Source of the DNA: a virus
Taxonomy: Duplodnaviria; Caudoviricetes
Length of the DNA stretch: 64,000 nucleotides
Reading direction: 5' to 3' (one strand)
IMG/VR virus record: IMGVR_UViG_3300048609_000068
Coordinates: 11,412-75,411 of that record
The notes beneath the pieces were generated by a model. It did no database searches and had not been told where the DNA came from. It saw nothing but the letters and a program-made list of their open reading frames with translations. Positions 2,545-62,639 of the stretch are shown here, piece by piece; the first letter of the stretch is position 1; the number at the start of each line of letters is the position of its first letter. The translations under genes were made by a program, and so were the position numbers.

Positions 2545-2737
2545 ACAAAAGCCTGTCAAGCGAGGGCGCGTGGAGCTCTTTACCCGCCCTCCTTGTGGTT
2601 TTGCTCCGATTGTGTTCTTTGAAGATGGAAAATGCCCGTTCACGCGACATGACTCGTGTGGGAATTGCATCAAAAATGAGTGTGATTACTACGACCTGAT
2701 GTTTCTGGCTGAAGCAACAAAGTTGGGATATGCTTGA
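2480..2737 (+). CDS. Small Cys-rich hypothetical protein (start uncertain)
   Basis: C..C..C.C cluster (KCPFTRHDSCGNCIKNEC); stop overlaps portal start. Confidence 0.35.
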   Translation: MTLKELKKSQQRRAPSTRRALKQKPVKRGRVELFTRPPCGFAPIVFFEDGKCPFTRHDSCGNCIKNECDYYDLMFLAEATKLGYA

Positions 2738-10012: not shown

Positions 10013-11143
10013 ATGAATTTGAACCCCTATCTCAAAAGTGCCAACAAGAAGTATGTTGACCGGAAAACGGGGGAGCCCTTTAACCCGTTCGCTACCGGGC
10101 GGAAGTTGAAGAGTGGCGGGATCGAGACGTCTGCAAGCCAGCGCATGTTCAATAGCGATGGCGTCCTGAACGCGGATAGCAAAGAGGACGCGCTCGGGAA
10201 GATCCAGACGATCCTCGATGGGATGGCTACCGGGTCCTACGACATCGAGCGTGTGGCCTCCTACGAGAACTCGTACAGCCCGGATGAGAAGGAAGCCCTC
10301 CTCCGCGAAGCGTTTGCCGACCCGGGTTCGGAGGGCTTCCGCCAGGTCGGACAGAACCTCCTGAACCCCGTCAAGGAAGTCCTCGACTACGAGGGGCTCT
10401 CACGGAAGTTCTTGATGCAGCGCACCATCAAACAGGGCGAGACCTTCCGCGTTGACAAGGATGTCTACGTGGTGGGCTGGACCATCGCCGAGGATGGACA
10501 GACACCGCAGAGCGTGGTGCCGGGCGCCTACTTCTTCCCTCCCGAGTTCGAGGTTACTGCTTACCCGAGTATAGAGCTGAAGGACAAGTACCGGGCGCAG
10601 TATGACATCTTGGGCCGCGCTCAGGACCGCGCCCGGATGGCTATCGAGTACCAAGAGGACCTCGCGTTTGTGAACCTTGCCCAGGTCTCCTCGGGGCAGG
10701 TGAACACGGCGACCGCGTTTGCGACCTTGAACCTGGCAGCGCTGGAGTCGATGCGCTACCAGATCGAGCGGCACCGTCTCCTCTGTCAGCTCTTCCTGAT
10801 CCACAGGCAGGAAGTGTCGGACCTCGTGAACACCGTCTCGACGCAGGTGGATCCCGTGACCCAGCGTGAAGCTATCATGGCTGGGTTCATCGCGAGCATC
10901 CTCAATGCGTACATCGTGACCACGGCGGGCACGAACACGTTCGAGATCCTGCAGCCGGGTGAAGCGTATGCGCTGACGGACCCCGAGCATCTCGGCGTGA
11001 TGGGGACCCGTGTGGAGCTCTTCAGCGAGCCGGTCAATGAGTACATGTTAGGGAACCCTCGGCAGGGCTGGTTCTGGTATGAGTTGATCAGCCAGAGCAT
11101 TCACAACCCGGCTGGCGTTGCCTACGGCCAGAAAACCTCCTAA
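10013..11143 (+). CDS. Major capsid protein (HK97 fold)
   Basis: 376 aa, strong AAGGAGG SD and GC-rich codons. Motifs LLNPVKEVLDYEGLSRKFL, FFPPEFEVTAYPSIELKD, RAQDRARMAIEYQED and GWFWYELISQSIHNPAGVA fit the MCP type of large myoviruses. Confidence 0.85.
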   Translation: MNLNPYLKSANKKYVDRKTGEPFNPFATGRKLKSGGIETSASQRMFNSDGVLNADSKEDALGKIQTILDGMATGSYDIERVASYENSYSPDEKEALLREAFADPGSEGFRQVGQNLLNPVKEVLDYEGLSRKFLMQRTIKQGETFRVDKDVYVVGWTIAEDGQTPQSVVPGAYFFPPEFEVTAYPSIELKDKYRAQYDILGRAQDRARMAIEYQEDLAFVNLAQVSSGQVNTATAFATLNLAALESMRYQIERHRLLCQLFLIHRQEVSDLVNTVSTQVDPVTQREAIMAGFIASILNAYIVTTAGTNTFEILQPGEAYALTDPEHLGVMGTRVELFSEPVNEYMLGNPRQGWFWYELISQSIHNPAGVAYGQKTS

Positions 11144-11170: not shown

Positions 11171-11593
11171 ATGAGCGTGGATAAAAAGGCAGTTCAAAAA
11201 GAGCTGGATCTTGCCGCTGACGAAATGGAGCGGCTTGGATACATGGATCTGGCAGGCCATGTGGATAAGTACAATAACCGCATGGTGGAAGCGAAATCGG
11301 GAGAGGTTGCTACCATCTACAGAGCGCTTCAAAATATTTGTGTTGAAGCGGAACGTCGTGTCAAGAACACAAATTTTGAGAAGCCTCTGATCGATTCCGA
11401 TGCTGTTCGTGCCAGAATCGCCATGATCCGAAGGAAGGCGTTTGCGAAGAAACTTGCTGAGAAAAAGACAGCACAGGAAACTCCTCCGCCGGAGAAGCAG
11501 GAAACGGAAGAAAAAAAGGAAGAGCTTCCTCCTGATGCCGCTGCAATCAAAGCAAGACTCGATCGGATCCGCCGTCTGAAGACTTCCAAGTAG
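11171..11593 (+). CDS. Hypothetical charged protein
   Basis: GGAGG SD; 140 aa helical ORF. Confidence 0.6.
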   Translation: MSVDKKAVQKELDLAADEMERLGYMDLAGHVDKYNNRMVEAKSGEVATIYRALQNICVEAERRVKNTNFEKPLIDSDAVRARIAMIRRKAFAKKLAEKKTAQETPPPEKQETEEKKEELPPDAAAIKARLDRIRRLKTSK

Positions 11594-17659: not shown

Positions 17660-18006
17660 TGTCTACGATGTACTTCGAGTGGGGTAACTTGATGGGGGGC
17701 ATGACCCCCAGTGGCGCTCCGGTGATTCCTGCGGCTGCTCCTTATGGACCACCTGAAGAATTCTCAGGGACGCTGGGTGCGGGTGTGACGACGATCACAT
17801 TCACGCAGAGAACCAAGCGTGTCACCATCCGAAATACCCATGACACACAGATTCTGAACTACTCTCTTGACGGAGGCGCGACATGGTTCGTCTCTGGTCC
17901 GTATCAAGTGGTTCAGGAATGGGTCAATATCACTAATCTTCAACTGCGACCTGCTGTTGCAGGTGAGACCCCAACGTATGAAATAACGGCAGTTCTTGTT
18001 GCGTAA
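17659..18006 (+). CDS. Small beta-sandwich virion protein
   Basis: TKRVTIRNTHDTQILNYSLDGG pattern typical of small jelly-roll decoration proteins. Confidence 0.5.
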   Translation: MSTMYFEWGNLMGGMTPSGAPVIPAAAPYGPPEEFSGTLGAGVTTITFTQRTKRVTIRNTHDTQILNYSLDGGATWFVSGPYQVVQEWVNITNLQLRPAVAGETPTYEITAVLVA

Positions 18007-18019
18007 AAAGGGACCAGAC

Positions 18020-19594
18020 ATGAGAAAGCTATTTTGGACACTTGTAGCCCTTTGCGTTTGTAGCGTTGCTTACGGGCAAGCCACGCAGCAAGTTTATTCG
18101 CGAATCCGGGATGCAACCAACACGGTTGCAGTGTCTGCTGTTGGACAGCTCACGCTCACGATGCCAGTCACGACGTATGCACTGGCTGTAGCTTCTGGAG
18201 TTTATTATTATGACGGAGTCAATCTCAGGCGTTGGTCTGGATCGACCCTGGGATCGGATAATGTTGTCGCTACCACGTATGCACCTTACTCCATGGCGTT
18301 TGGTTATTCTTATGATGGGGCTGCGTGGGATCGGATCACGTCAACAACGGCAGCGGATAATTTATCGTCTACGCAGCAGGGGCTGAACACCCTGAGTTAT
18401 AATTTATTTTACAATGGAACGAATTACCAGCGTTGGACAGGTGTTGCAACACATGCCGATGCTGTTCCAAAGACGACGCCTTCTCCGTGGGTAGGGAACT
18501 TCAACTACGTCCTTCATGGCGTAACGTGGGATATGCAGACGGCTTCGACATCGGCGGACAACCTGTCTGCAACGCCACAGGGGATTGACAGTATTAGTTA
18601 TACGCATTTCTTCTCATCGGATGGAGTTCCAGCGTTCAGAAGATGGACGGGATTGGTGACGCAGGTTGATGCCCTCACGAATGCGACGGCTGCACCTTTC
18701 GTTGCGAACTTGTCTTACGTCTTGCATGGAAGCACATGGGACAGGATGACCGCCATTACGTCTGCGGATAACATCTCCGCGACGCCACAGGGACTTGAAG
18801 TGATTGATTACATGCATTACTTCAACGGGACGAATCATCAAAGATGGACTGGAGAGACATGGGATTCTGGTTTGGCGATTACGAATGCGCCACCTGTGAT
18901 TGCTCTTTCTTCATTTTATAATGGATCCAACGGGCAGTATCTTCAAGGATCGAAACTCGATGGTGAAACTGTAGCCAACTCCACTTACGCTCCGCATGGA
19001 AAGAACTTCTTATATGGATATGACGCTACGGCAGCTACTTGGCGCTGGATAAACGCGGCAGATTCTCAGGCTGATGGTAAGGCTACAACATTAAATGCAC
19101 TGGATACTACCTCGTTTCTCTATGCATATAATGCTGGCTCTGCTGCATTTAATATGCTTAGGTTGGGTGCATACAATGAATTGTACGTTACAGATGTTGC
19201 TGTGAGGCCAGGGGAGGATCCGGCCAATGATTTTGTCAAGGTAAAAATCGATGCGGTTGGGACTACTGCGCCCGACGCTACTGTAGGGACTGCCGTTACT
19301 GGTGGCGCCGGTCTTACGATTGTTCTTGCCAGCCGTGATGTTTCTCAAGATATCAATTGGTGCATTTACCTTAAGAACACAGACGGGGTTGATCCGTTTA
19401 CTAATGCGGAAGTAGAAACTTCACCGGATAATGCGGTTTTTTCGAGCTTGGGTTGGTTTAGCTGTGATACATTGGCTGCTGGCGCTGTGTGCAATTTTTG
19501 CACTTCAGGATCGGCCTATAAATATGTTCGTGCAAGAGTTGCCAGTGCAAACGATGTTACGGTAACCTCTTATTTCTTTGGTAATCGTAATTAG
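18020..19594 (+). CDS. Fibre-like repeat protein with predicted signal peptide
   Basis: N-terminus MRKLFWTLVALCVCSVAYG-Q; three or more ~65-aa repeats (WDRxTSxxxADNLSxTxQGL..SY.....RWTG); C-terminal domain paralogous to 20143..20733. Confidence 0.65.
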   Translation: MRKLFWTLVALCVCSVAYGQATQQVYSRIRDATNTVAVSAVGQLTLTMPVTTYALAVASGVYYYDGVNLRRWSGSTLGSDNVVATTYAPYSMAFGYSYDGAAWDRITSTTAADNLSSTQQGLNTLSYNLFYNGTNYQRWTGVATHADAVPKTTPSPWVGNFNYVLHGVTWDMQTASTSADNLSATPQGIDSISYTHFFSSDGVPAFRRWTGLVTQVDALTNATAAPFVANLSYVLHGSTWDRMTAITSADNISATPQGLEVIDYMHYFNGTNHQRWTGETWDSGLAITNAPPVIALSSFYNGSNGQYLQGSKLDGETVANSTYAPHGKNFLYGYDATAATWRWINAADSQADGKATTLNALDTTSFLYAYNAGSAAFNMLRLGAYNELYVTDVAVRPGEDPANDFVKVKIDAVGTTAPDATVGTAVTGGAGLTIVLASRDVSQDINWCIYLKNTDGVDPFTNAEVETSPDNAVFSSLGWFSCDTLAAGAVCNFCTSGSAYKYVRARVASANDVTVTSYFFGNRN

Positions 19595-23919: not shown

Positions 23920-24339
23920 ATGGACTATTTATGTGGCCGGAACGTTGTCGAGAAGAACCTCAGTTCTGCTACCTACGTTGCCCCTGACTTGTTAGACGGT
24001 ATTGCGATTGCCGCTGTGGATGATGTGAGCGCATGGAGTCTGGGGGCTCCTGCTACCATTACAGGAGTTCCAGCGGCTGGTTCCGGTGCGTATAACATTT
24101 GCGGAATTTTCATCTACGCTATCAATATGATTGGTGATTACCAAATAAAGATCTATGATGATGCCGTATTCGTTGCGTCCAAGGTATTCTACAAGAAATC
24201 TGTGACATCGGACGACTACACGGAGTTGATTGTAACAACACCAATCATTGCATCGGGTAGCGTGATCACGGCATGTTTGGCTGCGTCGGATAACAATGGA
24301 TGCACTGCCAAGATCAAAGTTTATTATCGATATCTATAA
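23920..24339 (+). CDS. Hypothetical beta-rich virion protein
   Basis: GGAGG SD; 139 aa. Confidence 0.55.
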   Translation: MDYLCGRNVVEKNLSSATYVAPDLLDGIAIAAVDDVSAWSLGAPATITGVPAAGSGAYNICGIFIYAINMIGDYQIKIYDDAVFVASKVFYKKSVTSDDYTELIVTTPIIASGSVITACLAASDNNGCTAKIKVYYRYL

Positions 24340-24410
24340 GGGATCCGCATGGCAAAATACTATATTTTGTGTTGCGCTTTGCCGATGCCTATCGTACACG
24401 AGGGTATGGT

Positions 24411-27400
24411 ATGTCGAAAATATTTTTCCTTCTGACATTGCTGTTTAGTTTATTTTTGAACGCTGCAGAAAATAGCGTCATCAAAGCTCCGTTCTCGGGG
24501 TCTGATTATAAACATCTGACTAAAAATTCTAGTATCTTGGAGATCTGGGGAGACGTTGACGCTTCGGGGAGTTTGATCGATCATTCTGGAGAGAACCTGT
24601 TTGCCTATTCAGAAGACTTTACGCAGGCAGGAACGTGGGCCACATCGAATGCAACGTTGACTGGGAATGCTTACCAGAATCCCTTCAATGGATTGTTGAC
24701 GGCTGATGCACTGAATGAAGGGGCTGCTGCAGCAACGACACACTATATTTCCCAAAGTGTGTCCGTGACGAGCGGTAGGATCTACACGCTGAGTTTATAT
24801 GTAACGTCCATCCAGCAGACGGATCCAGCGAAGACGCGAGGGTGGATTGCACTGGGTCCAAACGCTGGGGCGTCCATGGCTTATTTCAACCTGGACACAT
24901 GCACGGTTGGAACGACGTCTACCGTGATCAGCACTTCCGCGAAAGCTGTTTATCCTGATTGGTGTAAGGTCGCAGTCCGGTTTGCAGCTACGTCCACAGC
25001 ATCCGTAGCGCAGCGGATCTACGTTGCGGAGACTGATAATGACGTTACGTTCGATGGCGGAACACAAGTTGCTTATGGGATCTTCGGCGCTCAATTTGTG
25101 GACAACACGGACAATGTGATTGCGGACATGGGGAGATACGTTGCTACGGGTGCCGCGTCAAAACCTCGGTTGGACCTTTCGCCGACGAACGCTCCTACGT
25201 TGCATACGTCCAGGTTGCAAACATCGGATAATCGGTTTTGGCAAGGACGGACGTTCAATGGAACGACGCAATACTATTCAAAACTACATCACGATGCGAT
25301 GAATATATTCGATGGAGATTTTACTATAACGGTAGTGCTCAAACAGCCAACAACGGCAGCAGCTACAGATCATGTTTTTTCACATGGTTCTGCAGGTGTA
25401 AATGGATGCACTCTTTACAATGCAGTAACATATTCTGCTTTGCAACTTGATAATAGTGGCTTATCTCCGGCGTCAAGAACTGCAGCAGTATCAGCAACTT
25501 GGAACGATGACAAATACCACGTTCTTCAGGGGGTAAGAAGAGGTAATATTTCTTTTGTTTCTGCAGATGGAAATAGAAGTTCTGGTAAGGATGTTACAAA
25601 TTATGGAGTAGATGGATCAAACATAGTCTACCTAAGCGGCTCGTCTCCTCTTGAAGGTTCCATTCTTTATTTTCGGTTAGATGCTTCTGCGCTTACGGAT
25701 ACAGAATTAGAAACAGACCGACAGCTTTTGATGGGCTATGGGATGGGGCAGCCCAAACAGACAAATGTAGGGTTCTCCAGAGCATCAGCTGGCTATGTGA
25801 CGCTGTTCGACAACACGCTGGCACAGCGCATGGCGGGTCTTCCTCGGGTTGGTCGGGATGGACTGCTCATTGAAGGGACGGCGACTAACTTACAAAGATA
25901 TAGCCAAGCGTTCAATAGTTGGGCAGTTCTTTCTGATCTGACTGTTCCTACTACAAATGCAGCAAGTCCTGATCCTAACTCAAATACTGCTTGTGTTCTA
26001 CACGAAAGCGGTGTTGGTAGCATCGCACATTTTATTCAAGATACTAATAGTAGTGGACTAACTGCTGGTGCAGTACATACATACTCAGTTAGACTCAAAC
26101 CAATAAATAGAAATTGGGTACTGTTGCGTGCGAAAGACCCAGCTTCTCCTACTCGCACTTGCTATTTTAATATTTCAACTGGAAAAGTTGGAACTGCATT
26201 AAATTGTACTGGACGTATAGAACCGAAAGCAGATGGGTACTATAAGTGTTCAATTACGTTTACTCAAACAGTAGGGCAAACCACTTCTGAACAGTTTATT
26301 TATATTGCAGAAGCAGACGGTGATATTACATTTGATGCTGGTGCTGGCCAAGACAGTCTCTATGTCTGGGGATCTCAATTAGAGTTAGGTTCCCATCCAA
26401 CGACTTATATTCCCACGACCACTGGAAGCGCCACTCGCTTGGCGGATAATCTTACGATGCGTCCTTGGAAGTTGACTCCGAATGTAAGAACCGGAACAGA
26501 GACGTGGTGGACGACCTTTGATCAAGACGTGGCGTCCACAGGAACCGTGGTGCTTGGAGGAAAGACCTTTACACAAGCGGGGGATACGAAACACGTTCAG
26601 ACTTCGGACTTGTCGAATTATTACGACTTTGATGGGACAGGGGATTACCTTAGTATAGCAGATAATACCTTTGATCAGACAGGATCTTTTAGTTTAGTAT
26701 TTGCAGTTACACCTAGTAACCTTACTGGGAATCATTATATATGTTCCAAAGGAACTACGCCAGGAGAAAAAAGATGGTATATATATTTATCTTCAGACTC
26801 TGTAATTTTATCGCTTTCATCCGATGGAACAACAGTCGTTTCTTTGACTAAAGCAACGGCTTGTTCCATTGGTAAAACTTCAATAGTTACTACAGCCTAT
26901 GATAATATTACTCATACAGGTAGTATCTGGGTTGATGACTTGGCTGTTGCAAGCCGAAGTGATTTTACGGGAGTAATAGCAGATCCTGCTAAAAATTTCT
27001 CCATAGGTTCAGGGGATGGTGGCGGAAGTCCATTTGCAGGTAAGTTTCATTTCTTGGGAATCCATACAGGTACTGCCCTAACTCAAACTCAACACGATAC
27101 TGCCTTCAACAACATGAAAGAATCCGCGATTACCCCTCTCGTCCTTTCTAATATAGCTCCAGCGACCTATACGTCCATCGAATTCGACGCCAAGTGTGAG
27201 TGGAACTCCAGCACCGACATTGGCGTTGCGAGAACCTTCTTGGAGCTCTCTGGAAACACCGGTCTTGCTGGTTCAGCTAAACTTGCAGCGACCAACAGGA
27301 ACAGACTCATCTTATCTACAAACGCCAGCGCCACGCTCACGACATCTTTAGCTGACAGCACGGCGACTGCACATTCGATTGGATCAGCGATTTCCAATTC

Positions 27401-27638
27401 GACAACTTATGGTTCTTGGCATCATTATAAGATCTACTGGTCATGCGCGGATCTCTCTGGAACGTATCTTGAAGTGGACGGTCTCACGACGGGTTACACG
27501 ACAGCAACGGCCATGACTGGAACCTGCACGCTAAACAACCACAACACGACGCTCCGTCTTGGATCGATCTTTGATGACACCTTATTAAATTCTCCTGACT
27601 GCTCTTTCAAAAATTTCAGAATAAGGTATGGGCAATAA
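24411..27638 (+). CDS. LamG lectin fibre protein B with predicted signal peptide
   Basis: Start at ATG 24411 (GAGGGT SD); MSKIFFLLTLLFSLFLNA-AE; two fibre-type domains (ENLFAYSEDF; IEGTATNLQRYSQAF) and two LamG domains. Confidence 0.7.
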   Translation: MSKIFFLLTLLFSLFLNAAENSVIKAPFSGSDYKHLTKNSSILEIWGDVDASGSLIDHSGENLFAYSEDFTQAGTWATSNATLTGNAYQNPFNGLLTADALNEGAAAATTHYISQSVSVTSGRIYTLSLYVTSIQQTDPAKTRGWIALGPNAGASMAYFNLDTCTVGTTSTVISTSAKAVYPDWCKVAVRFAATSTASVAQRIYVAETDNDVTFDGGTQVAYGIFGAQFVDNTDNVIADMGRYVATGAASKPRLDLSPTNAPTLHTSRLQTSDNRFWQGRTFNGTTQYYSKLHHDAMNIFDGDFTITVVLKQPTTAAATDHVFSHGSAGVNGCTLYNAVTYSALQLDNSGLSPASRTAAVSATWNDDKYHVLQGVRRGNISFVSADGNRSSGKDVTNYGVDGSNIVYLSGSSPLEGSILYFRLDASALTDTELETDRQLLMGYGMGQPKQTNVGFSRASAGYVTLFDNTLAQRMAGLPRVGRDGLLIEGTATNLQRYSQAFNSWAVLSDLTVPTTNAASPDPNSNTACVLHESGVGSIAHFIQDTNSSGLTAGAVHTYSVRLKPINRNWVLLRAKDPASPTRTCYFNISTGKVGTALNCTGRIEPKADGYYKCSITFTQTVGQTTSEQFIYIAEADGDITFDAGAGQDSLYVWGSQLELGSHPTTYIPTTTGSATRLADNLTMRPWKLTPNVRTGTETWWTTFDQDVASTGTVVLGGKTFTQAGDTKHVQTSDLSNYYDFDGTGDYLSIADNTFDQTGSFSLVFAVTPSNLTGNHYICSKGTTPGEKRWYIYLSSDSVILSLSSDGTTVVSLTKATACSIGKTSIVTTAYDNITHTGSIWVDDLAVASRSDFTGVIADPAKNFSIGSGDGGGSPFAGKFHFLGIHTGTALTQTQHDTAFNNMKESAITPLVLSNIAPATYTSIEFDAKCEWNSSTDIGVARTFLELSGNTGLAGSAKLAATNRNRLILSTNASATLTTSLADSTATAHSIGSAISNSTTYGSWHHYKIYWSCADLSGTYLEVDGLTTGYTTATAMTGTCTLNNHNTTLRLGSIFDDTLLNSPDCSFKNFRIRYGQ

Positions 27639-28355
27639 ATGGATAGAACTAAACTGATCCTGATTGGAGCCCTCGTCCTCGGCGGGGGCGTTGGAGTTTA
27701 TGAGCTATTGGGTGGAGAAGAGAAGATCCCGATCTATGAGTATCAAGTTGTCCCGAAAGCATACCTCCACGCTACCAAGGGAAAGTATGTCCGCATTGTT
27801 TCAAATACGCAAGACATAAGCAAGGCGCCGATGAACACGGATGTTGGCAGGGTCACGCTCTTGACTGGAAGTGTCCCTGCTGACGCGCTCTGCGAGGTTG
27901 TCTTCGCGGCTCCTTCCATCAAAGACAAGAACACGAACATGGATATGACGGACGTGCCTGAGCTTGCTCCTTATTGGCAGAAGGCTGGGATGTCCAATCC
28001 GCAAATGGTGGCTCCTGGCAAAGTGGATTTGAATCCGATCTGGTGGACGGTCCTGCAAGGGGAGGGTTGTATTCGTGCGGTTGACTACATTGGTTATTTT
28101 GGTTCTTCCATCAAGGAGTTCTTATCCCTTGGTGAAGAGACTAAAGGGAGATTCCTGAAGACGTACAATGCGAATAAGGAGATTGTTCCCTATGGGGATA
28201 AAGATGCGGATCCGACTGCCGAAGTATTTGCTCCATTCGGTGTGTTTGGAAGAGAGAGGGATCTTGATTTTGAGACGGTGAAGGAAGGGAACGTGATTCC
28301 TAAGTATCAGATTCCTGAAGGTGGGTTTGCAGAATTGGAAGAGGTGGAGCCGTGA
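27639..28355 (+). CDS. Hypothetical protein with N-terminal signal anchor
   Basis: MDRTKLILIGALVLGGGVGVYELL hydrophobic N-terminus. Confidence 0.6.
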   Translation: MDRTKLILIGALVLGGGVGVYELLGGEEKIPIYEYQVVPKAYLHATKGKYVRIVSNTQDISKAPMNTDVGRVTLLTGSVPADALCEVVFAAPSIKDKNTNMDMTDVPELAPYWQKAGMSNPQMVAPGKVDLNPIWWTVLQGEGCIRAVDYIGYFGSSIKEFLSLGEETKGRFLKTYNANKEIVPYGDKDADPTAEVFAPFGVFGRERDLDFETVKEGNVIPKYQIPEGGFAELEEVEP

Positions 28356-31036
28356 ATAAACTTTTGTTTATCTTTAGTTTTCTGTTTTCTTTGTTTGTTC
28401 AGGCTGCTGGACATAAGGTTTACGATGCGACTTTTGGTGGATCTCGAATTAGTGGGTATATACATAACTGGACAATAGCTGAGTATTCAGGAGAAATAGA
28501 CCCGAGTACGGGATACTTGATCGACAAGAGTGGTGTTCGCACGCTTCCAAATGGTCAACCGAAACCACAGCATGATCTTGCCCCAACAGGTGCGCCAACT
28601 ACGGCGATTTCTACATTGAGAAAACAGGATGGGAATTATTGGAGAGGAAGAAGTTTTGACGGCGCTACGCAGTATTACTCAAGGACACATCATGTAAATT
28701 TTAATATTTTTGATGGGGATTTTACTATAACTGTTGTATTTTTATCGCCTACTACCGCTGCTGGTACTGATTCAATTATTCAACATTCATCTGTTCTTCA
28801 TGATGGAGCAACATTATACGTCGGACAGTCAGGTGACTTCGCATTAGAAATTGATAATGATAGTTTAGTCCCAGTATATAAAACTATTTCCACTCCTGCT
28901 ATATATCACGATGGAAAATATCACGTCGGACAAGTAGTGAGGAAAAGTAATAAATGTTTTGTTAGCGTAGATGGAACCAGAACTGCTTCTGTTGATGTTA
29001 CTGGATATGGTAAAGACGGAACGAGAGTTGTATACTTAGGCGGTCTTGGAACCTATACTGGCAACATTGCCTACTTCCGCCTCGACGCCGAAGCCCTTCC
29101 TGATGAAGTCTTAGAATTTGAGCGTCAAGCCCTGATGGGGTATGCATCTTCCACGTCGATGAAAGTTCCTCCTGCATTCGTTCGAGCTTCTGCTGGTTAC
29201 ACGAATGTTCAAGGGAATCTCCATTCCAGAATGAACAACGCTCCCAGGATTCAAACAGATGGTTCTATCCTGATCGAAGAAGGAAGAACCAACTATATGA
29301 CGTATTCAAATGCGCTCAACCAGTGGACAAAACTAAACGCTGGTGATTCTTTCTCGACCACGAACACGACTCCGGAAACAACCGCAGACGGTTATGGCAT
29401 CATTGGTGCTGCTGCAAATGTGGACCATGGAATCACCCGAGCAACGGCTGCGCTCACTGCTGTTAACCATACGCTTTCTTTTTATGCAAAACAAGGAACG
29501 CATCCTTGGGTTTATTTTGCGGATACAACAGTTGCAACTGCGACTGGATATTTCGATCTGAGCCGTGGAAAATTTGGTACATTAGGCGCGGGATGGGTTA
29601 TCACCCCGACTTTTGACACCAATGCAAATGGATGGTACAGGATCAAGGCCCCATTCCTTGGAACGGTAGCAACGCACACGATCCAGTTGAGTCCAGCAGA
29701 TGCAGATCTGGACAAGACAACCACGGGTGACGGCGCGAGCACCATGACTGCAATGTGGAACGTCCAGGTTGAAGCTGGATCGCATGCGACATCTCCGATC
29801 ACAACGGCCGCTGTGACAGCAGCGAGAGCTGCTGATGACTATACAGCAATTCCTTGGGAGCTGAACGTCAATGCAATTCGGACAGGGACGGAGACTTGGT
29901 GGACAGATTTCTCATCGGACGTTGCAACTACAGGTACGGTTTCTTTAGGCGGAAAGACATTTACACAAGTTGGAGACACGAAGCATGTCTATGGTCCAGA
30001 TTTGGGGCATAGGTATGACTTTGATGGAACTGGGGATTATCTAACAATAGCAGACAATTCTTTCAATCCTGCGGGAAGTTTTAGTGTGGCGTTGGTGCTT
30101 ACTCCTTCTGTTTTGACTGCTGTAACTACTTATATGATGGCAGTCAAAGCAGGAAATGTTGGAGATGTCGGATGGTATATATATGCGTATGGAGATGGTA
30201 TCTATTTTGAATTTTCAAAGACAGGAACTGGAACGAACTACACTTCAAAAGCCACGTCTCTTACGGTTGGAAAAACAAGTCTTATAACTTTTACATATAC
30301 CTACAGCGGTCATCCTGACTTATCAGATAGTAGATTGGATATCTACGTTGACGGTTTAGTAGTTGCTTCAAAAACGGATTGTTATGGTCCAGTATATGCT
30401 TCAAGTGCTGCATTTTCTATTGGGGCGAAAGCAACAGGACTAAATGCTTATAACGGCAAACTCCACTTCTTATCTTTCCACAATGGAACAGTGTTGACCC
30501 AAGCACAGCACAATACCGCCTACGCGAATTTCAAAAAAGGTGGGATTCTTCCGTTGACTATTAGCAGCACGAGCGCAAGGAAAAAGCTGTATGTGGAATT
30601 TGAGGCTAGGGCGGAATGGAGTGGCTCTACTAATATAGGTGTAACGAGAAGTCTGTTAGAAATAGGTGGCCTTACTGGAGTATCCGCTGCGACACGAAAT
30701 AGATTATTGTTATATTTTAGTACTGCTACAAGTAAGTTTTATGCAACAGTTTATTCCAATGGAACAATTGAACATTCACTTGTGAGTAATGCTGCAGACC
30801 CAATAGATTTTTCCAAGTGGCATAGGTATCAATACTATTTTGATGCTACGAATTTGGCCAACTCGTATCTGAAAGTAGATGGTTCAACAACTGGATTTAC
30901 TGCTACCGTCGGTACTATGACTGGCGCAACGACATTATACTTACAAGATACTAAAATTCGTCTTGGCCAAGGTTACGCCAGTAACATTAATGGCAATTCT
31001 GAAATCAAAAACGTAAGAATCCTCACATACGAATAA
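28352..31036 (+). CDS. LamG lectin fibre protein C with predicted signal peptide
   Basis: GTG start overlaps upstream TGA; MNKLLFIFSFLFSLFVQA-AG; same LamG-fibre-LamG layout as A. Confidence 0.7.
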   Translation: MNKLLFIFSFLFSLFVQAAGHKVYDATFGGSRISGYIHNWTIAEYSGEIDPSTGYLIDKSGVRTLPNGQPKPQHDLAPTGAPTTAISTLRKQDGNYWRGRSFDGATQYYSRTHHVNFNIFDGDFTITVVFLSPTTAAGTDSIIQHSSVLHDGATLYVGQSGDFALEIDNDSLVPVYKTISTPAIYHDGKYHVGQVVRKSNKCFVSVDGTRTASVDVTGYGKDGTRVVYLGGLGTYTGNIAYFRLDAEALPDEVLEFERQALMGYASSTSMKVPPAFVRASAGYTNVQGNLHSRMNNAPRIQTDGSILIEEGRTNYMTYSNALNQWTKLNAGDSFSTTNTTPETTADGYGIIGAAANVDHGITRATAALTAVNHTLSFYAKQGTHPWVYFADTTVATATGYFDLSRGKFGTLGAGWVITPTFDTNANGWYRIKAPFLGTVATHTIQLSPADADLDKTTTGDGASTMTAMWNVQVEAGSHATSPITTAAVTAARAADDYTAIPWELNVNAIRTGTETWWTDFSSDVATTGTVSLGGKTFTQVGDTKHVYGPDLGHRYDFDGTGDYLTIADNSFNPAGSFSVALVLTPSVLTAVTTYMMAVKAGNVGDVGWYIYAYGDGIYFEFSKTGTGTNYTSKATSLTVGKTSLITFTYTYSGHPDLSDSRLDIYVDGLVVASKTDCYGPVYASSAAFSIGAKATGLNAYNGKLHFLSFHNGTVLTQAQHNTAYANFKKGGILPLTISSTSARKKLYVEFEARAEWSGSTNIGVTRSLLEIGGLTGVSAATRNRLLLYFSTATSKFYATVYSNGTIEHSLVSNAADPIDFSKWHRYQYYFDATNLANSYLKVDGSTTGFTATVGTMTGATTLYLQDTKIRLGQGYASNINGNSEIKNVRILTYE

Positions 31037-53440: not shown

Positions 53441-56245
53441 ATGCAAAGAACGAAATATTTTAATCACACGCGCCCTTCTGAAACTCAGCTCAACTGGACG
53501 GAGAATTCCCGTGTGTCCTCTATCTTGGAGCGTAGTAGGGAAAATTTCCAGTTTGGGATCGTCTCTGGTTTTACTATTACAATCAATGGTTCGGACCAAA
53601 CGAAAGTTGATATTTCAGAAGGGGAAGGTTATACAGGTGGGAAGTACCTTCTTAACTCCTATGTTGGAGCCAACTCAGGAGAACGGGTTAGCACGCGAAC
53701 AGCAACGGTGTCGGGTGGCGTAGCCACGAACATTTTTGGTGTGGCTCTTGCGGATTATGTGAATGGAACGAAGAACTACATCAGCTTGGTTTATGTTGAA
53801 GATGAAGCATATCCGTTGTCAGAAAGGACTTTTCCCTTTACAGCGCATGACACGGTTGTTACAGAAACTTATTCTGTATCCGTGATGACAGAGGCTAATT
53901 GGAATTTGCTTTCAGCTGCGGATCTCAATGAAAGAACCTTGTTGGGAATCGTGACAGCCCGTGGCGCGGGGGTGGCGATTACGGCAGCGGACATTGACCA
54001 GTTTGTTCAACCGAAGACGCATCCTACTCCGACACAGCCAATTACGATTACGGGCGTGACCATCGTTGGGGTTTCCGGAGAAACTCCGACTGGCTCGGGA
54101 ACGCTAAGGTACGATTCTACGACCCATACTTTCTTCTGGGCGGCGCCATTGGATACAGAAGGTTCGGGTCAGGCAGTTCTTAACTCCTGTCAGGTGACTG
54201 TTACCTCCGCGAATCTTGTTGACTACATAGTTATCAATGTTGATTATGGAAGTTTGCCTGTAGGAAATCTGTCGGATACCATTACGATCCGCGCTCTTTA
54301 TGGAAGAACCATCCCGATGGCTTGCGCGAAAGATACCGCGCATCGGGATATGGTTGGGAGCGGCGTTGTTTCTGTGACAAATCCGCATGGGATCGCTCTG
54401 GCAGATATTTCAGGAGGGAGCACCGAGAGCGATGATCTTCTTCATGTGAACGGGATTGTTTATGAGGCAGATGCTGATCAATTGTTGTGCGCTATTAATG
54501 TAGATCCAACGAAGATTGAAGTAAACAATTTTGGAGGTCCTTCCAATAGCTTTTTTGTAGATGGCTATTTGTTGGATGCGCTGCACGGGATTCCCGCACC
54601 GACCAAAGGTTCGATTGATTTTACCGGCGAGACGGTGGAAGGAGATTATTTATTTTACTTGGACTCTGCCGGGAATTTGGGGACTGTGTTGGTTTCTGCA
54701 TTTACGTCTACAGGTATCGCAGATGCTGATGTCCTTGATCCAAATATAAGAATTTATGATATGGCCAATAATGTAGCAGGAGATTTTGTTCTTGCGTGGG
54801 ATCCTGTAACGAGACTTATGACGTATAAAGCGCCAGGAGACGTTCCAGGAGCAGCTGTTTACATAGCATCTCAATGGGGAGCTGCTGCGGCTGTTGGATA
54901 TTACAAATTATTTTCGAGTAATACCGACAATTGGATCATTTTACGTTTTACCGATGATCCTGTGGGTGTTGGTTGGACTAGAGCTACATTAATGACAGCC
55001 GCCGCGCATAGCGAAGAAATGATTTTGAAGTTGGGAATTGGTTGTTGGAATGTATTTGCTCCAGCGACTCGTTTTGTAGCAGCAAGTGTAAGAGACATTC
55101 GTCAGTGGTATACATCTGACATTCGTCCTTCATTTTTGACAGAGCATGATAAGGACGGCTACCACACAAAACCATTGCGAAACCCTTTGTCTGTGGAAGT
55201 AACAGGATCCAATGCTATCTGTGGATTTGCTGGAGATAGCATGGGTGTTTACGGGTCTGCCAATTACATGGCTGTCTATGGATCAGCAGCGTCTGGGTTG
55301 GCCGGTGTGTTCGTAGCAAGTAGCACCGCAGTTTTGGGCTATGCGAGTGATGAGTATGGTGGGATGTTTACTGCAAGCAACACGGCTGTATATGCGTCTG
55401 CTACGGAAAATATCGGTGGTTATTTTAAAGCCAGTATAGATTATGGTGTTTTTGGGTCTGCTAAAAGATACTATGGTGGTTATTTTACAGCCAGTCTAGA
55501 TTTTGGTGTTTATGGATCTGCGGGAGGAGACTATGGTGTTTATGGATGGGCTGCCTCAAGCTACGGCGGTTGGTTTACGGCTTCAAACTATGGTATTGTT
55601 GGCTTAGCAAATGCTAGTGTTGCAGGAACAGCGTATGGTGCATCGGTTGAAGCAACAAATAGGAAAAGTGGAGAAAACGTAGTTGGAGTATATGGAAGTG
55701 CAGATGCAACAGCTGCAACTGTTTTTGGAGTGTATGGTTACCTTAGCTGTACAGACATATCTCCTATGTGCGCCGGATTTTTTTCTGCTTCTAATGATGG
55801 CACCGGTCCCGCATATGGAATTAGAGCCGCTGGAATTGGCAAAGGTGCTTATGTTTATGGAGCGTCAATTGGAGCTTTTGGGAGCTACAATGGAGATATC
55901 TATGGATTGTCAGCCATAGCACAGAATAGTAGTGTAGAAGCAAAAGAAATTGGTATTAAGGGGGCATGCGCGGGAACTGTGGGAACTGGCATCTATGGGA
56001 AGGGGGGAGCAAGTGCAGGTGGTATAGGAGTTTACGGAGTTGGCGCAACCGCTGTTTATGGGCTTGGTGGAGAAATTGGTGTTTGGGGATCGGCTGTAAC
56101 AGCTGTGTATGCAAAAGGATTGATTCGGTATGATGTCGATACTTGTGCGCATGCTGGACCAGCAGTTATTTACTTACCTGTTGTGGTTTCTAACGCCGAT
56201 GGCGGGCCGACAACTTGGGCGTTGGCGCTAACTCAAATAGCTTAG
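53441..56245 (+). CDS. Tail fibre protein
   Basis: N-terminal baseplate-anchor region, TNPHG knot, C-terminal GVYG/GGYF Gly-rich repeats. Confidence 0.75.
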   Translation: MQRTKYFNHTRPSETQLNWTENSRVSSILERSRENFQFGIVSGFTITINGSDQTKVDISEGEGYTGGKYLLNSYVGANSGERVSTRTATVSGGVATNIFGVALADYVNGTKNYISLVYVEDEAYPLSERTFPFTAHDTVVTETYSVSVMTEANWNLLSAADLNERTLLGIVTARGAGVAITAADIDQFVQPKTHPTPTQPITITGVTIVGVSGETPTGSGTLRYDSTTHTFFWAAPLDTEGSGQAVLNSCQVTVTSANLVDYIVINVDYGSLPVGNLSDTITIRALYGRTIPMACAKDTAHRDMVGSGVVSVTNPHGIALADISGGSTESDDLLHVNGIVYEADADQLLCAINVDPTKIEVNNFGGPSNSFFVDGYLLDALHGIPAPTKGSIDFTGETVEGDYLFYLDSAGNLGTVLVSAFTSTGIADADVLDPNIRIYDMANNVAGDFVLAWDPVTRLMTYKAPGDVPGAAVYIASQWGAAAAVGYYKLFSSNTDNWIILRFTDDPVGVGWTRATLMTAAAHSEEMILKLGIGCWNVFAPATRFVAASVRDIRQWYTSDIRPSFLTEHDKDGYHTKPLRNPLSVEVTGSNAICGFAGDSMGVYGSANYMAVYGSAASGLAGVFVASSTAVLGYASDEYGGMFTASNTAVYASATENIGGYFKASIDYGVFGSAKRYYGGYFTASLDFGVYGSAGGDYGVYGWAASSYGGWFTASNYGIVGLANASVAGTAYGASVEATNRKSGENVVGVYGSADATAATVFGVYGYLSCTDISPMCAGFFSASNDGTGPAYGIRAAGIGKGAYVYGASIGAFGSYNGDIYGLSAIAQNSSVEAKEIGIKGACAGTVGTGIYGKGGASAGGIGVYGVGATAVYGLGGEIGVWGSAVTAVYAKGLIRYDVDTCAHAGPAVIYLPVVVSNADGGPTTWALALTQIA

Positions 56246-56928
56246 TAACTGCAAGCGTTTGCCACTTCAAAACGAGTATCAGGAGTAAATTCATTAAGAT
56301 ATTGTTTGGCTTTTACAGAAAGTAATTCGTTGCATGTGGTGGTTCTACCAATGTCATTTTTGCATTCACTATATTTTCCTGAATTTTCATCATATGATGC
56401 AACTTGTCTATTAGCTGTAAAACAGATGCAAACTGGACACGTGGGGAAAGCCGCACAAGCGTCATCTGTGAGCTTATCTCTTATAAAAATGACAAATTCA
56501 CAAGCATTCACACACGTCCCTACCTTTTCTACCATATCTTCTGAGGAAGCACACCACGTATAAACTCCACACGTAGCGCATTCTCCTGTGCAGGGTTTCT
56601 CAAAGCAAGGGTCCTCCTGCATGAAATTAGTCCGTTGGCAACTGACCGCCCCACCATCGATCGTGCATTCCGTGGCAGGGTCAAAGCACTTGATTTTCTC
56701 TGTCGTCTTGTCCTTGACGCAGAGTTGCATCTCCCCCGTCTTCTCATTGATGGCTGTCAGGATCGACCCGTAGTCACTCCCTTCCGCGCAGAGCACTTCT
56801 CCTCCTGTCTGGATCTTGCATGCCGCATCCGACACGCAATACTTTGCGCCTCCACCGACAGGGAAACACATTTCTGAGGAACTTCCTCCACATCCAACCA
56901 ACGCGAGCACCAACAAAAGCTTTTTCAT
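56242..56928 (-). CDS. Cys-rich lipoprotein
   Basis: MKKLLLVLALVG-C canonical lipobox; more than 20 Cys in 228 aa; AAGGAGAGG SD. Confidence 0.8.
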   Translation of the reverse strand: MKKLLLVLALVGCGGSSSEMCFPVGGGAKYCVSDAACKIQTGGEVLCAEGSDYGSILTAINEKTGEMQLCVKDKTTEKIKCFDPATECTIDGGAVSCQRTNFMQEDPCFEKPCTGECATCGVYTWCASSEDMVEKVGTCVNACEFVIFIRDKLTDDACAAFPTCPVCICFTANRQVASYDENSGKYSECKNDIGRTTTCNELLSVKAKQYLNEFTPDTRFEVANACSY

Positions 56929-56940
56929 GACCTCTCCTTG

Positions 56941-56994
56941 TTTAGTAACCGTTCTCTAGTTTATCGTAGCAACTCGATCTTTTGTCCAACTAAA
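56941..56994 (-). repeat. 54-bp direct repeat copy 1 (promoter/leader of the lipoprotein gene)
   Basis: tttagtaaccgttctctagtttatcgtagcaac-tcgatc-ttttgtccaactaaa; 51/54 identical to 57776..57829. Confidence 0.95.
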
Positions 56995-57043
56995 CTCTTA
57001 ATCTATTTTTACCTTCCTTTTTGGACGACTATTCCAGATAGGG

Positions 57044-57754
57044 TTACCAGTCGTCCGATTCGTTGTCGTGCCATACGTGGCCAGCTGAGAATGTGGATGA
57101 CACACTTTGCCATGTGGCCCGTTTCTGCCAGAAGGCAACAGACCCGTTACCGTCGAAGTCTGTCCAGGCATTGCAGTTGAAGGCCGCGCCGCCTGCCTTG
57201 CTGCCGGTGGAAGCTTCGTATTGGTAGCACCCAAATACCGCGTCGGTGATAGCCCAGTTGATGGACCGGAACGCCGATCCTATCTTGAAAAAGCTTGATG
57301 GGATGAACCCGGAATCGCTGGGGGGGTAGTCTAGACCGTTTGGACATGCGCGCGGAGTGGATGGAGGCATTTTTCCGGGAGGTGTAGTTCCTAGCTCAAA
57401 GTAATCGACGACGCCCTTATAGCATATGTCCAAATTTTCATAGATCTCCTCAAGCTTGGCTTTTTTGTCAACTTGGTTGAAATAGTCTTGGATACTAAAT
57501 CCTTCTCTGTGTATTTCATTTGAGACAATCTTTACTGCAATCTGTGAGGTAGGATAATTGAGAATTATTTCTTTGATGTTAGCTTTTGCTTTTTCAAATT
57601 TCTCCTTTGCCTGTACAAATTCTCCCCTTGTTCTTGCTTCCTGGATTGCGTCAAGGCTTGCCATTGCTTCAACAAAGAGCGCATTGGCCTTTTCGTCGGC
57701 GCTGACGCAGGACAGATTGATCACAAAAAGTACGACATAGCGCAAATTGGACAT
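57044..57754 (-). CDS. Exported protein with a type IV pilin-like C-terminal domain
   Basis: Signal peptide MSNLRYVVLFVINLSCVSA; helical ANALFVEA...YPTSQIAVKI segment; then ENLDICYKGVVDYFE...FRSINWAITDAVFGCYQY...FNCNAWTDFDGNG, resembling myxobacterial pilin heads. Confidence 0.55.
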   Translation of the reverse strand: MSNLRYVVLFVINLSCVSADEKANALFVEAMASLDAIQEARTRGEFVQAKEKFEKAKANIKEIILNYPTSQIAVKIVSNEIHREGFSIQDYFNQVDKKAKLEEIYENLDICYKGVVDYFELGTTPPGKMPPSTPRACPNGLDYPPSDSGFIPSSFFKIGSAFRSINWAITDAVFGCYQYEASTGSKAGGAAFNCNAWTDFDGNGSVAFWQKRATWQSVSSTFSAGHVWHDNESDDW

Positions 57755-57775
57755 TAGCTCCTCCTGTTTTTCCTA

Positions 57776-57829
57776 TTTAGTAACCGTTCTCTAGTTTATC
57801 GTAGCAACCCGGACTTTTGTCCAACTAAA
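57776..57829 (-). repeat. 54-bp direct repeat copy 2 (promoter/leader of the pilin-like gene)
   Basis: tttagtaaccgttctctagtttatcgtagcaac-ccggac-ttttgtccaactaaa; overlaps the TAG stop of 57825..58745. Confidence 0.95.
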
Positions 57830-58745
57830 TTCTCAAATTTCGTGTGCTCCCGTAGTGAGTCCCGCAATAATCGCACACGTAGTTCCCGTTCACGATTCCT
57901 AAAGATCCTCCACATCCCTCACAGGTTTTCCGCTGTATGACCTTCTTTCCAAGTTCCATCATCTGTCCCTCTAGCTCCTTGTCGTGCTTGATCTTCGAGA
58001 CGGTTCTGTCTGCGACCATCTCTGCCAGATCTTCCATGTCTGGTAAATTTACGCTCTCCGTGTCGTTACCCATTGGTATGAATATATTCGGTCTTTGAAG
58101 CTTAGGAATCTCCTTAGTAACGGGTACGATAATGAGCATAATTAGATGTAATATAAGACTGATAAGACCCACTAACAACCATGGGGATAATTCGTACACA
58201 TAATTTTCCGTAACGTCATGTCGAAGTAGCGAAGTATGCATAAATGCAAAACCTGAATCGTAGTTTATTTTGATCCACTCTCCTATTTTTTCTACAAAAT
58301 TGATCTGTGTTCCTGGGTCAGCGGTGTCAAAGATCTTGCATGTCATACTGGGTGCTGCACGGACGTTAGCAGCGTTGGTGACGAACCATCCGTTGTCTAT
58401 CGGTTCATTATTATAGGTCTGCCAAGATTTGTAAGATCCTAGTCCTAAAAATAGATAGATAAGGATCAAGGAGGCTACCCCGGTAAGATGCCATCTCCAT
58501 GTGCTTCTTGAAAACGGAGCGTACATTGCTTTGGTGGACAGGCAGATGACATAAAGTACCGCAGGAAGAAGTATTCCGTAGAGGAAAATTCTATAGAGTA
58601 CCGGTCCTAATTTGCAGTAATCGATCAAAAACCAAAAGAAGCATACTGTTATAAAGATCCCTACGATGACAGTTTCTACTGGGCCTTCGTGGCTTTCATG
58701 TGGGCATCCTGGATTTTGGCAACTATTATGATCGTAGCTTCCCAT
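57825..58745 (-). CDS. Membrane protein with SH3b domain and C-terminal zinc ribbon
   Basis: Three N-terminal TM segments; TNAANVRAAPS...GEWIKI..GFAFMHTSLL (SH3_3); a further TM; CEGCG...VCDYCG; AAGGAG SD. Confidence 0.75.
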   Translation of the reverse strand: MGSYDHNSCQNPGCPHESHEGPVETVIVGIFITVCFFWFLIDYCKLGPVLYRIFLYGILLPAVLYVICLSTKAMYAPFSRSTWRWHLTGVASLILIYLFLGLGSYKSWQTYNNEPIDNGWFVTNAANVRAAPSMTCKIFDTADPGTQINFVEKIGEWIKINYDSGFAFMHTSLLRHDVTENYVYELSPWLLVGLISLILHLIMLIIVPVTKEIPKLQRPNIFIPMGNDTESVNLPDMEDLAEMVADRTVSKIKHDKELEGQMMELGKKVIQRKTCEGCGGSLGIVNGNYVCDYCGTHYGSTRNLRI

Positions 58746-62243: not shown

Positions 62244-62639
62244 ATGGCCCGAATTCTGATCGTCGATGAGAACGAGAGTCATATCGATCTTGTCAAGGAA
62301 GCGCTCCTGCAGTACAAGAATGAATACGTGTCGGAGTGGCGATTGGCGATCGATACGGCAAGAACTTTATCCCATGGGATGGATTTGGTCAAACGTCACA
62401 ATTATGAAATGATTATTGCAGATATACTCCTCGCGAACACGAACAGCTGGGACTTCCTGAAAACTGTGCGGAATCGATTTCCGCAAATTTTGAAGACGCC
62501 TGTGGTGATACTCTCTGAAGTAAGCGCTATTGATCTGGAGTACCAAGCGATCCGGTATGGCGCAAGCGCGTGGTTTACTAAGTTTCCTCCCATACAGCAT
62601 TTTGCGCGAGAGATATTTAAACTTCTTCAGGGGGCTTAG
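62244..62639 (+). CDS. Single-domain response regulator (CheY-like receiver)
   Basis: RILIVDE acidic pocket, MIIADILL (phospho-Asp), PVVILS (Ser/Thr), GASAWFTK (Lys). Confidence 0.9.
   Translation: MARILIVDENESHIDLVKEALLQYKNEYVSEWRLAIDTARTLSHGMDLVKRHNYEMIIADILLANTNSWDFLKTVRNRFPQILKTPVVILSEVSAIDLEYQAIRYGASAWFTKFPPIQHFAREIFKLLQGA

Follow-up and report, generated by a model that had tools for sequence, protein, structure and literature searches.

The inner-membrane anchor of type IV pilins is alpha1-N, the hydrophobic part of helix alpha1 that forms the filament core (mature residues 1-28); the pilins are cut at Gly-1 by prepilin peptidase and polymerise through alpha1-N and Glu5. Pilins truncated so as to begin at about residue 29 are soluble and folded; the delta 1-28 pilins engineered for crystallography and the S-pilin of Neisseria are of this kind and do not polymerise. 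Several phage proteins are known that act on the pilus or on other receptors of the host. Tip and Aqs1 bind PilB and PfsE binds PilC; all three are small and act on the motor or platform of the pilus from the cytoplasmic side. The lipoprotein Llp of phage T5 blocks FhuA and Cor of T1, phi80 and N15 acts likewise, and the genes of these receptor-blocking lipoproteins lie by receptor-binding-protein genes. The gene analysed here, at positions 57044 to 57754 (minus strand) of a 64,000-nucleotide stretch of viral DNA (the window; positions 11,412 to 75,411 of the IMG/VR record IMGVR_UViG_3300048609_000068), is predicted to encode a type IV pilin head fused to an exported helical module, and its product is called the chimera in the following.

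Phage inhibitors of the pilus such as Tip, Aqs1 and PfsE have been reviewed (PMC11436027, PMC11656802). Phage-borne pilus subunits have been described as P-FimU in F10-like Pseudomonas prophages, as P-PilA in Xylella prophages and as PilA-like genes of virulent phages, which include a truncated PilA of the N-terminal 60 residues (Sztanko et al., Cell Rep 2026, PMC12952977). Protection from pilus-dependent phages was shown for the prophage P-FimU (PMC12952977). The chimera is like P-FimU and P-PilA in being a phage-borne homologue of a pilus subunit, encoded by an accessory gene with its own promoter and of a kind found also in non-temperate phages. P-FimU and P-PilA, however, keep the leader and alpha1-N and act by incorporation into the pilus, and the truncated PilA keeps the stalk only. 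The chimera is the reverse of the latter, consisting of the head only, with a signal of lipoprotein type and a soluble helical module in place of the stalk; because it is not incorporable, another mechanism such as mimicry, competition or blocking would be required. It has no sequence relationship to the Pseudomonas and Xylella phage pilins, which belong to a different pilin family.

The pilins of Myxococcota (Myxococcus xanthus PilA, 8tj2; NF041775 typeIV_PilA_Myxo; and a family from uncultured members of the phylum) have a homologous head and their folds superpose on that of the chimera (Z 7.0-7.6), with a head identity of 40-51% to the uncultured family and only about 15% to the M. xanthus PilA head. 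They differ from the phage-encoded chimera in having a class III signal, Phe1, Glu5 and a hydrophobic alpha1-N. Like Llp and Cor, the chimera is a small exported protein of lipoprotein type, encoded beside fibre genes on the opposite strand and from its own promoter, but Llp and Cor bind the receptor whereas the chimera resembles a subunit of the presumed receptor; no sequence similarity to them was found and the PHROG search was empty. With Tip, Aqs1 and PfsE it shares the presumed outcome, loss or alteration of the pilus and exclusion of pilus-dependent phages, but these are unrelated in sequence and act on the cytoplasmic side whereas the chimera is pilin-derived and predicted to be periplasmic. 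The delta 1-28 pilins and S-pilin also consist of a head that begins at about residue 29, but they arise in the laboratory or by proteolysis, while the chimera is truncated by its very gene and carries a lipoprotein module as its tether. No description of a head-only pilin chimera tethered in the manner of a lipoprotein was found in the literature searched, and this form is new among phage-encoded pilus components, whose described cases all keep the stalk.

The architecture can be stated with very high confidence: an exported phage chimera with a genuine pilin head and without the prepilin stalk. The function proposed here, held with middling confidence, is that of an exported, tethered and non-polymerisable pilin-head mimic that disturbs the host type IV pilus. 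The open reading frame (ORF) is a complete coding sequence of 236 amino acids (57044 to 57754), as judged from the ORF call, the ribosome-binding site and the relatives; the stop codon is at 57044 to 57046 and the ribosome-binding site at 57758 to 57765 (AGGAGG, 6 nt before the ATG). The signal peptide comprises residues 1-16 (MSNLRYVVLFVINLSC; 57707 to 57754, minus strand), as defined by hydropathy and alignment, with Cys16 as the putative lipidated cysteine and an alternative signal peptidase I (SPase I) site after A19. It is followed by an N-terminal module (N-module) of residues 17-96 (57467 to 57706, minus strand), with a guanine plus cytosine (GC) content of 40% and defined by homology, alignment and model. 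The fusion junction is at residues 97-103 (KKAKLEE; 57446 to 57466, minus strand), as given by a two-block alignment and by the start of the BLASTP match, and the type IV pilin head, assigned by homology and fold, extends over residues 97-236 (57047 to 57466, minus strand; GC 54%). All strings quoted in the original prediction, which had described a pilin-head chimera lacking the prepilin leader, were found in the translated ORF: ENLDICYKGVVDYFE at residues 106-120, FRSINWAITDAVFGCYQY at 162-179 and FNCNAWTDFDGNG at 192-204 and, within the N-module, ANALFVEA at 23-30 and YPTSQIAV at 67-74.

A word-indexed search with the chimera gave a single relative, P0002, a prepilin of 194 amino acids with PF07963 and a textbook leader. 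Residues 97-236 of the chimera align by BLASTP with residues 42-194 of P0002 (42% identity, E 4e-37), and residue 42, where the pilin homology begins, corresponds to mature pilin residue 29 or thereabouts. An exhaustive phmmer search of 1.84 billion representatives gave 69 matches, 26 of them at an E value of at most 1e-10. On these matches the pilin resemblance of the C-terminal half is far beyond chance. The phage head is homologous over its whole length to the PilA-like family of uncultured Myxococcota; 25 of the 32 family positions that are at least 70% conserved are kept in it, as are all four family cysteines (C111, C137, C176 and C194). The profile of the pilin family matches M. xanthus PilA through alpha1 (E 3.9e-13), and the C-terminal part of this helix (alpha1-C) in the phage head is alignable with alpha1-C of M. 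xanthus PilA. No meaningful match to the chimera was found in Pfam, PHROGs, NCBIfam or PADLOC, and 50,697 phage records searched by tblastn yielded none. Scanning IMG/VR with a head pattern gave no confirmed relative, but the pattern would miss the window's own TDFD motif and close relatives may thus escape it. At full length the chimera is a singleton among 15 billion proteins, and a search for shorter fragments of it found none.

The AlphaFold2 model of residues 97-236, based on an alignment of 38 sequences, has a predicted local distance difference test score (pLDDT) of 91.6 and a predicted template modelling score (pTM) of 0.87. It consists of a long helix (model residues 2-26) packed on a four-stranded sheet; the parts recognised are alpha1-C (residues 97-122), the alpha-beta loop, the four-stranded sheet and a TDFDGNG motif (198-204). 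The arrangement of an amphipathic alpha1-C on a four-stranded antiparallel sheet is, in the model, that of the globular head of type IV pilins. In an exhaustive VIA-align search the matches ranked 1-18 were all pilins or pseudopilins with Z scores of 5.3-7.6, for example 4noa (Z 7.6), 1qve (Z 7.3) and M. xanthus PilA 8tj2 (Z 7.0, root mean square deviation 2.4 Å over 98 residues), and nearly all top pilin matches were aligned from chain residue 29. When the full-length model was used, pilins again matched its C-terminal head. Foldseek searches of the head model against PDB and BFVD gave nothing significant; these blanks are uninformative because VIA-align did recover pilins. The Z scores are modest, but the matches are uniform and agree with the sequence homology, so that the pilin assignment is secure. 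The original prediction had claimed a pilin alpha/beta head and had named another fold as what would overturn the claim; the identity to P0002, the AlphaFold2 model and the 18 top structural matches all bear it out, and the predicted fold is a pilin head.

The absence of the prepilin leader and of alpha1-N, likewise part of the original prediction, was also seen. A motif scan found no GFTLIEL-type motif in the chimera or anywhere on the whole 75-kb contig; prepilin relatives of the head do carry a GFTLIE-type motif. The chimera has no match to the N_methyl entries of Pfam and NCBIfam (PF07963 and TIGR02532) and lacks the Gly(-1), Phe/Met(+1) and Glu(+5) of the prepilin leader. Hydropathy shows a single hydrophobic segment, residues 1-19, which is the N-terminal signal; there is no hydrophobic alpha1-N, the pilin homology beginning only at residue 29 or so, and the chimera is thus not a full-length, incorporable pilin of the P-FimU or P-PilA type. 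Having no class III leader, no Glu5 and no hydrophobic stalk, it would be neither processed by prepilin peptidase nor polymerised into a pilus, and as read from its sequence it cannot serve as a pilus subunit.

The two blocks of homology meet at residues 97-103, where both parent families share a KxKAxxE(E/V) motif, and the alignments place the fusion point exactly at the boundary of alpha1-N and alpha1-C. The GC content jumps at the junction from 40% (42% at third codon positions, GC3) to 54% (GC3 62%). This step is consistent with two origins, but the GC3 of the phage genes spans 29-81%.

The N-terminal half is represented by a second group of matches in the phmmer search, about 30 in number, which cover residues 10-102 only (E 4e-8 to 1e-3). 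These relatives are lipoproteins of 120-860 amino acids with a canonical lipobox and often with tetratricopeptide repeats (TPR) further on. They share the motif C-(S/A)-x-P-(D/N)-E-K-A-N-x-L-(F/Y)-V-E-A ... Y-P-S-S-x-(I/L)-A-V-K-(I/L)-V, of which DEKANxLFVEA and YP(S/T)SxxAVKIV are the conserved parts in the N-module, and the alignment over the approximately 90 N-terminal residues is clean. The N-module was found at 15 further loci, in metagenomes of marine-sediment type, with a GC content of 33-44% and an identity of 32-45%. The 301 sampled Myxococcota genomes gave three borderline matches only, five metagenome-assembled genomes (MAGs) bearing the pilin family gave none, and a pattern scan of IMG/VR for the N-module gave no confirmed relative. 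Judged from its homology, the N-module is a small three-helix module borrowed from a TPR-type lipoprotein family. The helical ANALFVEA module of the original prediction is accordingly present and helical, but it was taken as a domain from a separate lipoprotein family and is not a novel linker.

The full-length model (pLDDT 82) was made with a two-block alignment (A8); combined MAFFT alignments (A5 and A6) were discarded as the halves were misaligned in them. The model has helices at residues 19-42, 46-66, 71-77 (short) and 88-122. The last of these is unbroken; it closes a generic three-helix bundle and continues straight into the pilin alpha1-C. In the model the hydrophobic stalk is in effect replaced by a soluble bundle on a putative lipid tether. 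A search of a structure atlas with the N-module gave generic helical bundles only. Two named families were considered for the module, and neither is supported. BamD/YfiO (TIGR03302, PF13525) was matched by relatives only, over the first 70 profile positions and with 15-20 bits against a cut-off of 81.4, and the chimera itself did not match. The type IV pilotin profile (PilF/PilW/Tgl; TIGR02521) was matched by the relatives P0049 and P0044 with 14-17 bits against a cut-off of 154, in a generic TPR region outside the shared module.

For the N-terminus a lipoprotein signal is the likeliest reading, preferred to a plain Sec signal because the relatives of the N-module are lipoproteins and Cys16 falls in the column of their lipobox cysteine, in 13 of 16 and in 12 of 12 relatives in two alignments. 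Compared with the lipobox [LVI][ASTVI][GAS]C, the end of the chimera signal (I-N-L-S-C16) fits at positions -1 and -2 but not at -3, which is N. In the sequence INLSCVSADEK an alternative SPase I cut between VSA and DEK is possible, and the chimera is predicted to be exported under either signal type. Of the Sec-type signal in the original prediction the export signal thus stands, while its type is more likely that of a lipoprotein.

The chimera gene is the middle one of three minus-strand genes that lie between the plus-strand fibre block and a gene for an NAD-dependent DNA ligase, and the three products are an SH3_3/Zn-ribbon membrane protein, the chimera and a Cys-rich lipoprotein. The gene is flanked exactly by two direct repeats of 61 nt, which are 92% identical, 835 bp apart and unique in the window. 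The upstream copy (57776 to 57836, minus strand) holds the sigma70-like promoter of the chimera gene, with TGGACA at -35 (57818 to 57823), a spacer of 17 nt and GATAAA at -10 (57795 to 57800); the other copy (56941 to 57001, minus strand) is downstream of the chimera gene and upstream of the next gene. All three genes have such a sigma70-like promoter (TGGACA/TGGTCA, 17 nt, GATAAA/GATAAT) and a ribosome-binding site, as predicted from the sequence.

The first gene of the cassette (57825 to 58745, minus strand; domain search and promoter scan) encodes a membrane protein of 306 amino acids with SH3_3 and a C-terminal Zn-ribbon and has its own similar promoter. Its product has a Cys/His-rich N-terminus and several hydrophobic segments, and the beginning of the gene overlaps the GTG at which the ligase ORF is annotated to start. 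The third gene (56242 to 56928, minus strand; from the ORF) encodes the Cys-rich lipoprotein of 228 amino acids (signal MKKLLLVLALVGC, then GG), which is kept in related phages. This lipoprotein has an LVGC lipobox and matches no named family; its gene is found at about 93-96% nucleotide identity in wetland and freshwater phage contigs and converges on the fibre gene in every related phage. This lipoprotein, too, may serve in the envelope or in exclusion. The last gene of the tail and fibre block (53441 to 56245, plus strand; from the ORF) encodes a fibre-like protein of 934 amino acids and converges on the cassette.

The cassette is nearly complete in one soil run, the probable source, while wetland and freshwater runs of other studies contain parts of it. 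A wetland contig of 372 nt matches the window over 57366 to 57603 with 32 differences in 238 nt (86.6% identity); it covers residues 51 to 129 approximately and crosses the junction. Its continuation, which does not match, stays in frame and reads I-A-T-P-I-A-C-P-N-G where the chimera reads P-S-T-P-R-A-C-P-N-G. Another contig from outside samples covers residues 1-50 and the promoter repeat. An assembly artefact can be ruled out, and the chimera is not the only copy. In the related contigs the head part aligns worse than the N-module or the neighbouring genes, with coverage that is too thin for a call of diversifying selection. For 56974 to 57365, the C-terminal part of the head, no contig of another sample was found at an identity of at least 80%, which does not show that the part is absent there. 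No RNA dataset containing the cassette was listed. In a more distant relative (L041) the lipoprotein has 52% amino acid identity, the C-terminus of the fibre is syntenic and the gene directly upstream of the lipoprotein gene ends in a Zn-ribbon (...LCHRCGTFYSG...) resembling that of the SH3/Zn-ribbon protein of the window. No pilin head was found between these two genes in L041, and since the neighbours are the same the chimera gene is taken to be an inserted accessory gene.

With one genome taken per GTDB species, a scan by pattern gave 20 loci of the pilin family, with a GC content of 48-74%. All are in Myxococcota or "Deltaproteobacteria" MAGs, as expected from the myxobacterial pattern that the original prediction had recognised in the head, and the tree tool gave Myxococcota for every locus to which it assigned a phylum (all but L006). 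The family is found in 17 of the 301 sampled Myxococcota genomes, in 1-5 copies each and with a best identity of 51%. Several genomes have 2-5 copies that are often adjacent, and one MAG has tandem paralogous pilin genes (L014, 5854 to 7020). Two loci from different MAGs (L003 and L004) have the same order of pilin, unknown gene, ABC ATPase, ABC-2 permease and TMEM260-like glycosyltransferase, which matches the pilA-pilG-pilH-pilI order of M. xanthus; on this likeness the major pilin of a sub-lineage of uncultured Myxococcota belongs to the family. The flanks of the pilin genes at these two loci (L004, 3296 to 5566 and 9133 to 10944; L003, 9082 to 11106) encode an STT3/AglB-like oligosaccharyltransferase, glycosyl- and methyltransferases and a TMEM260-like O-mannosyltransferase, and the sequences suggest pilin glycosylation in this lineage.

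That sub-lineage is the best guess for the host of the phage, although the GC content of the phage is 45% and its structural genes are unrelated. Among known phages Virus Rctr197k (197 kb) is nearest, with 44% identity in the major head protein and 36% in the portal protein. No kinship to the myxophage Mx1 was found, Virus Rctr197k being nearer, and a search of the window for tRNA genes found none.

Several cellular relatives of the head lack GFTLIEL as well. They comprise short lipoproteins (P0010 and P0018), forms with a transmembrane N-terminus (P0015 and P0048) and long forms of about 460-575 amino acids (P0003, P0013, P0024-P0027, P0030, P0033, P0035 and the gene at 2950 to 4698 of L021). 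The long forms consist of a lipoprotein or Sec signal, a domain of about 330 amino acids that is weakly DUF3352-like, the hydrophobic second half of alpha1-N and the head; as read from their N-termini they cannot be processed as prepilins. In the tree of head domains 17 leaderless forms group together, with a support of 91 in the Shimodaira-Hasegawa-like approximate likelihood ratio test (SH-aLRT), and the phage head is outside this group and nearest to true prepilins. Uniting the phage head with the leaderless group was not rejected by the approximately unbiased (AU) test (p 0.55). The loci of P0010, P0018 and the pilin P0006 are on contigs shorter than 2 kb and their context is uninformative.

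In the function proposed above, the lipoprotein-type signal would export the chimera and probably provide it with a lipid anchor. The accessory gene, which lies by the tail-fibre genes, would be read from a host-type promoter of its own, and a tethered copy of the pilin head would be presented in the periplasm. There the head may mimic a pilin subunit and compete for whatever recognises such subunits (the assembly apparatus, the fibre as it grows or the pool of pilins), by which the type IV pilus would be disabled or altered. The phage would benefit if pilus-dependent superinfecting phages were excluded and its progeny protected, and/or if a pilus-dependent matrix that hinders spread were lost. 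Superinfection exclusion is probably the likeliest pay-off because of the position by the fibre genes, the own promoter, the two envelope neighbours and the published precedent of phage pilus subunits, in virulent phages too. Another pay-off is suggested by M. xanthus, in which loss of pilA gives about 10-fold more phage Mx1 (PMC8080016). What the analysis shows is the architecture of the chimera, its homology, fold and export signal and the accessory status of its gene; that it is lipidated, what it binds and how it affects pili are inferred.

Some points weigh against the proposal. Binding to a pilus component and an effect on piliation rest on inference, and the lipidation is uncertain because the lipobox is atypical, with N at -3, and fails PROSITE-type rules. 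The proposal presumes that the host has the pilin and that the phage uses the pilus, while neither the phage GC content of 45% nor the nearest relative, Virus Rctr197k, points to a host. To titrate a major pilin, which is abundant, in stoichiometric fashion, a phage protein would have to be made in large amounts. The Myxococcota lineage has cellular leaderless pilin-head proteins of lipoprotein type of its own; derivation of the phage copy from these is compatible with the AU test, and they need not be inhibitory.

This last point leads to the best surviving of the other explanations, though an unlikely one, that the chimera is the phage version of a normal cellular class, a lipoprotein-spacer-pilin-head auxiliary gene that anchors, terminates or regulates pili or has an unrelated envelope role, and is not an inhibitor. 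The 17 leaderless forms are coherent as a class, including long lipoprotein/DUF3352-like forms, transmembrane forms and the short lipoprotein P0018, to which P0010 adds a further short lipoprotein form, and the AU test allows the phage head among them. The free tree search, however, places the phage head elsewhere, the phage spacer is unrelated to the cellular ones and has only the three borderline matches in the 301 Myxococcota genomes, and the chimera is without the hydrophobic half of alpha1-N that is present in the long forms. The sole long-form locus examined, L021, adjoins DUF4139/DUF4140 genes and is outside any pilus cluster.

Truncated M. xanthus PilA binds exopolysaccharide (EPS). 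The head could be seen as a binding module, a lectin or adhesin for EPS or another ligand, that alters cohesion or the matrix and favours release or spread of the phage. The head is intact, with all conserved cysteines and an Asp-rich loop, and deletion of pilA in M. xanthus increases the yield of phage Mx1 about 10-fold, for which the authors' hypothesis is loss of the pilin-dependent EPS matrix (PMC8080016). This explanation is improbable; a ligand site is undefined for this pilin family, and a periplasmic tether would keep the head out of reach of extracellular polysaccharide unless the lipoprotein were surface-exposed.

It is still less probable that the chimera is a receptor decoy, freed on membrane fragments or vesicles at lysis and absorbing the pilus-binding virions of competing phages. 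The chimera mimics a probable phage receptor subunit, its gene is beside the fibre genes, and the poorer alignment of the head relative to the N-module in the related contigs is arms-race-like, if weakly so. A mimic of the phage's own receptor would, however, also trap the phage's own progeny, and a location at the inner leaflet or in the periplasm would hide the chimera until lysis. Phage lipoproteins such as T5 Llp act in the opposite way to a decoy.

Least probable is a neutral passenger or decaying recombination product, since, although the full-length protein is a singleton and the GC step at the junction is like that of a recent chimera, the frame is intact with a good ribosome-binding site and its own promoter, the conserved positions and all four cysteines are kept although no pilin is more than about 40-50% identical, the folds of both halves are confident and the diverged orthologue in the independent wetland sample (86.6% nucleotide identity) keeps the junction and the frame.

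The phage origin of the DNA, assumed in the original prediction, is supported by the genes of the window, which include those for the portal protein (2734 to 4584), the major head protein (10013 to 11143) and several tail or fibre proteins, and by the IMG/VR virus record itself (75,411 bp, completeness estimate 41%). The major head gene has a GC3 of 0.81 compared with 0.29-0.63 in the other 20 tabulated genes. Three large ORFs resembling fibre or tail proteins have signal-peptide-like N-termini (17996 to 19594, MRKLFWTLVALCVCSVAYG before Q; 24300 to 27638, MSKIFFLLTLLFSLFLNA before A; 28352 to 31036, VNKLLFIFSFLFSLFVQA before A), and such starts are unexpected in virion proteins, whose assembly is cytoplasmic. 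Downstream of the ligase gene, a gene for a stand-alone response-regulator receiver domain (62244 to 62639) adjoins a helix-turn-helix (HTH) gene.

A wider generalisation, rather doubtful as yet, is that tethered stalk-less heads are a distinct and recurrent anti-pilus class, with which the phage and, independently, Myxococcota cells cap, jam or down-regulate the pilus from the periplasm by subunit mimicry. If true, this would be a form of superinfection exclusion complementary to the stalk-only and full-length phage pilins, and type IV pili would be phage receptors in uncultured Myxococcota. Phage-encoded pilus components as an anti-phage defence were shown only in 2026, and the chimera would be a ready-made probe for what recognises pilin heads in pilus assembly, an open question in the field. 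The analysis reveals in uncultured Myxococcota both a major-pilin family and cellular leaderless pilin-head lipoproteins, and it gives a first hint at the host and receptor of a soil phage lineage of about 180 kb.

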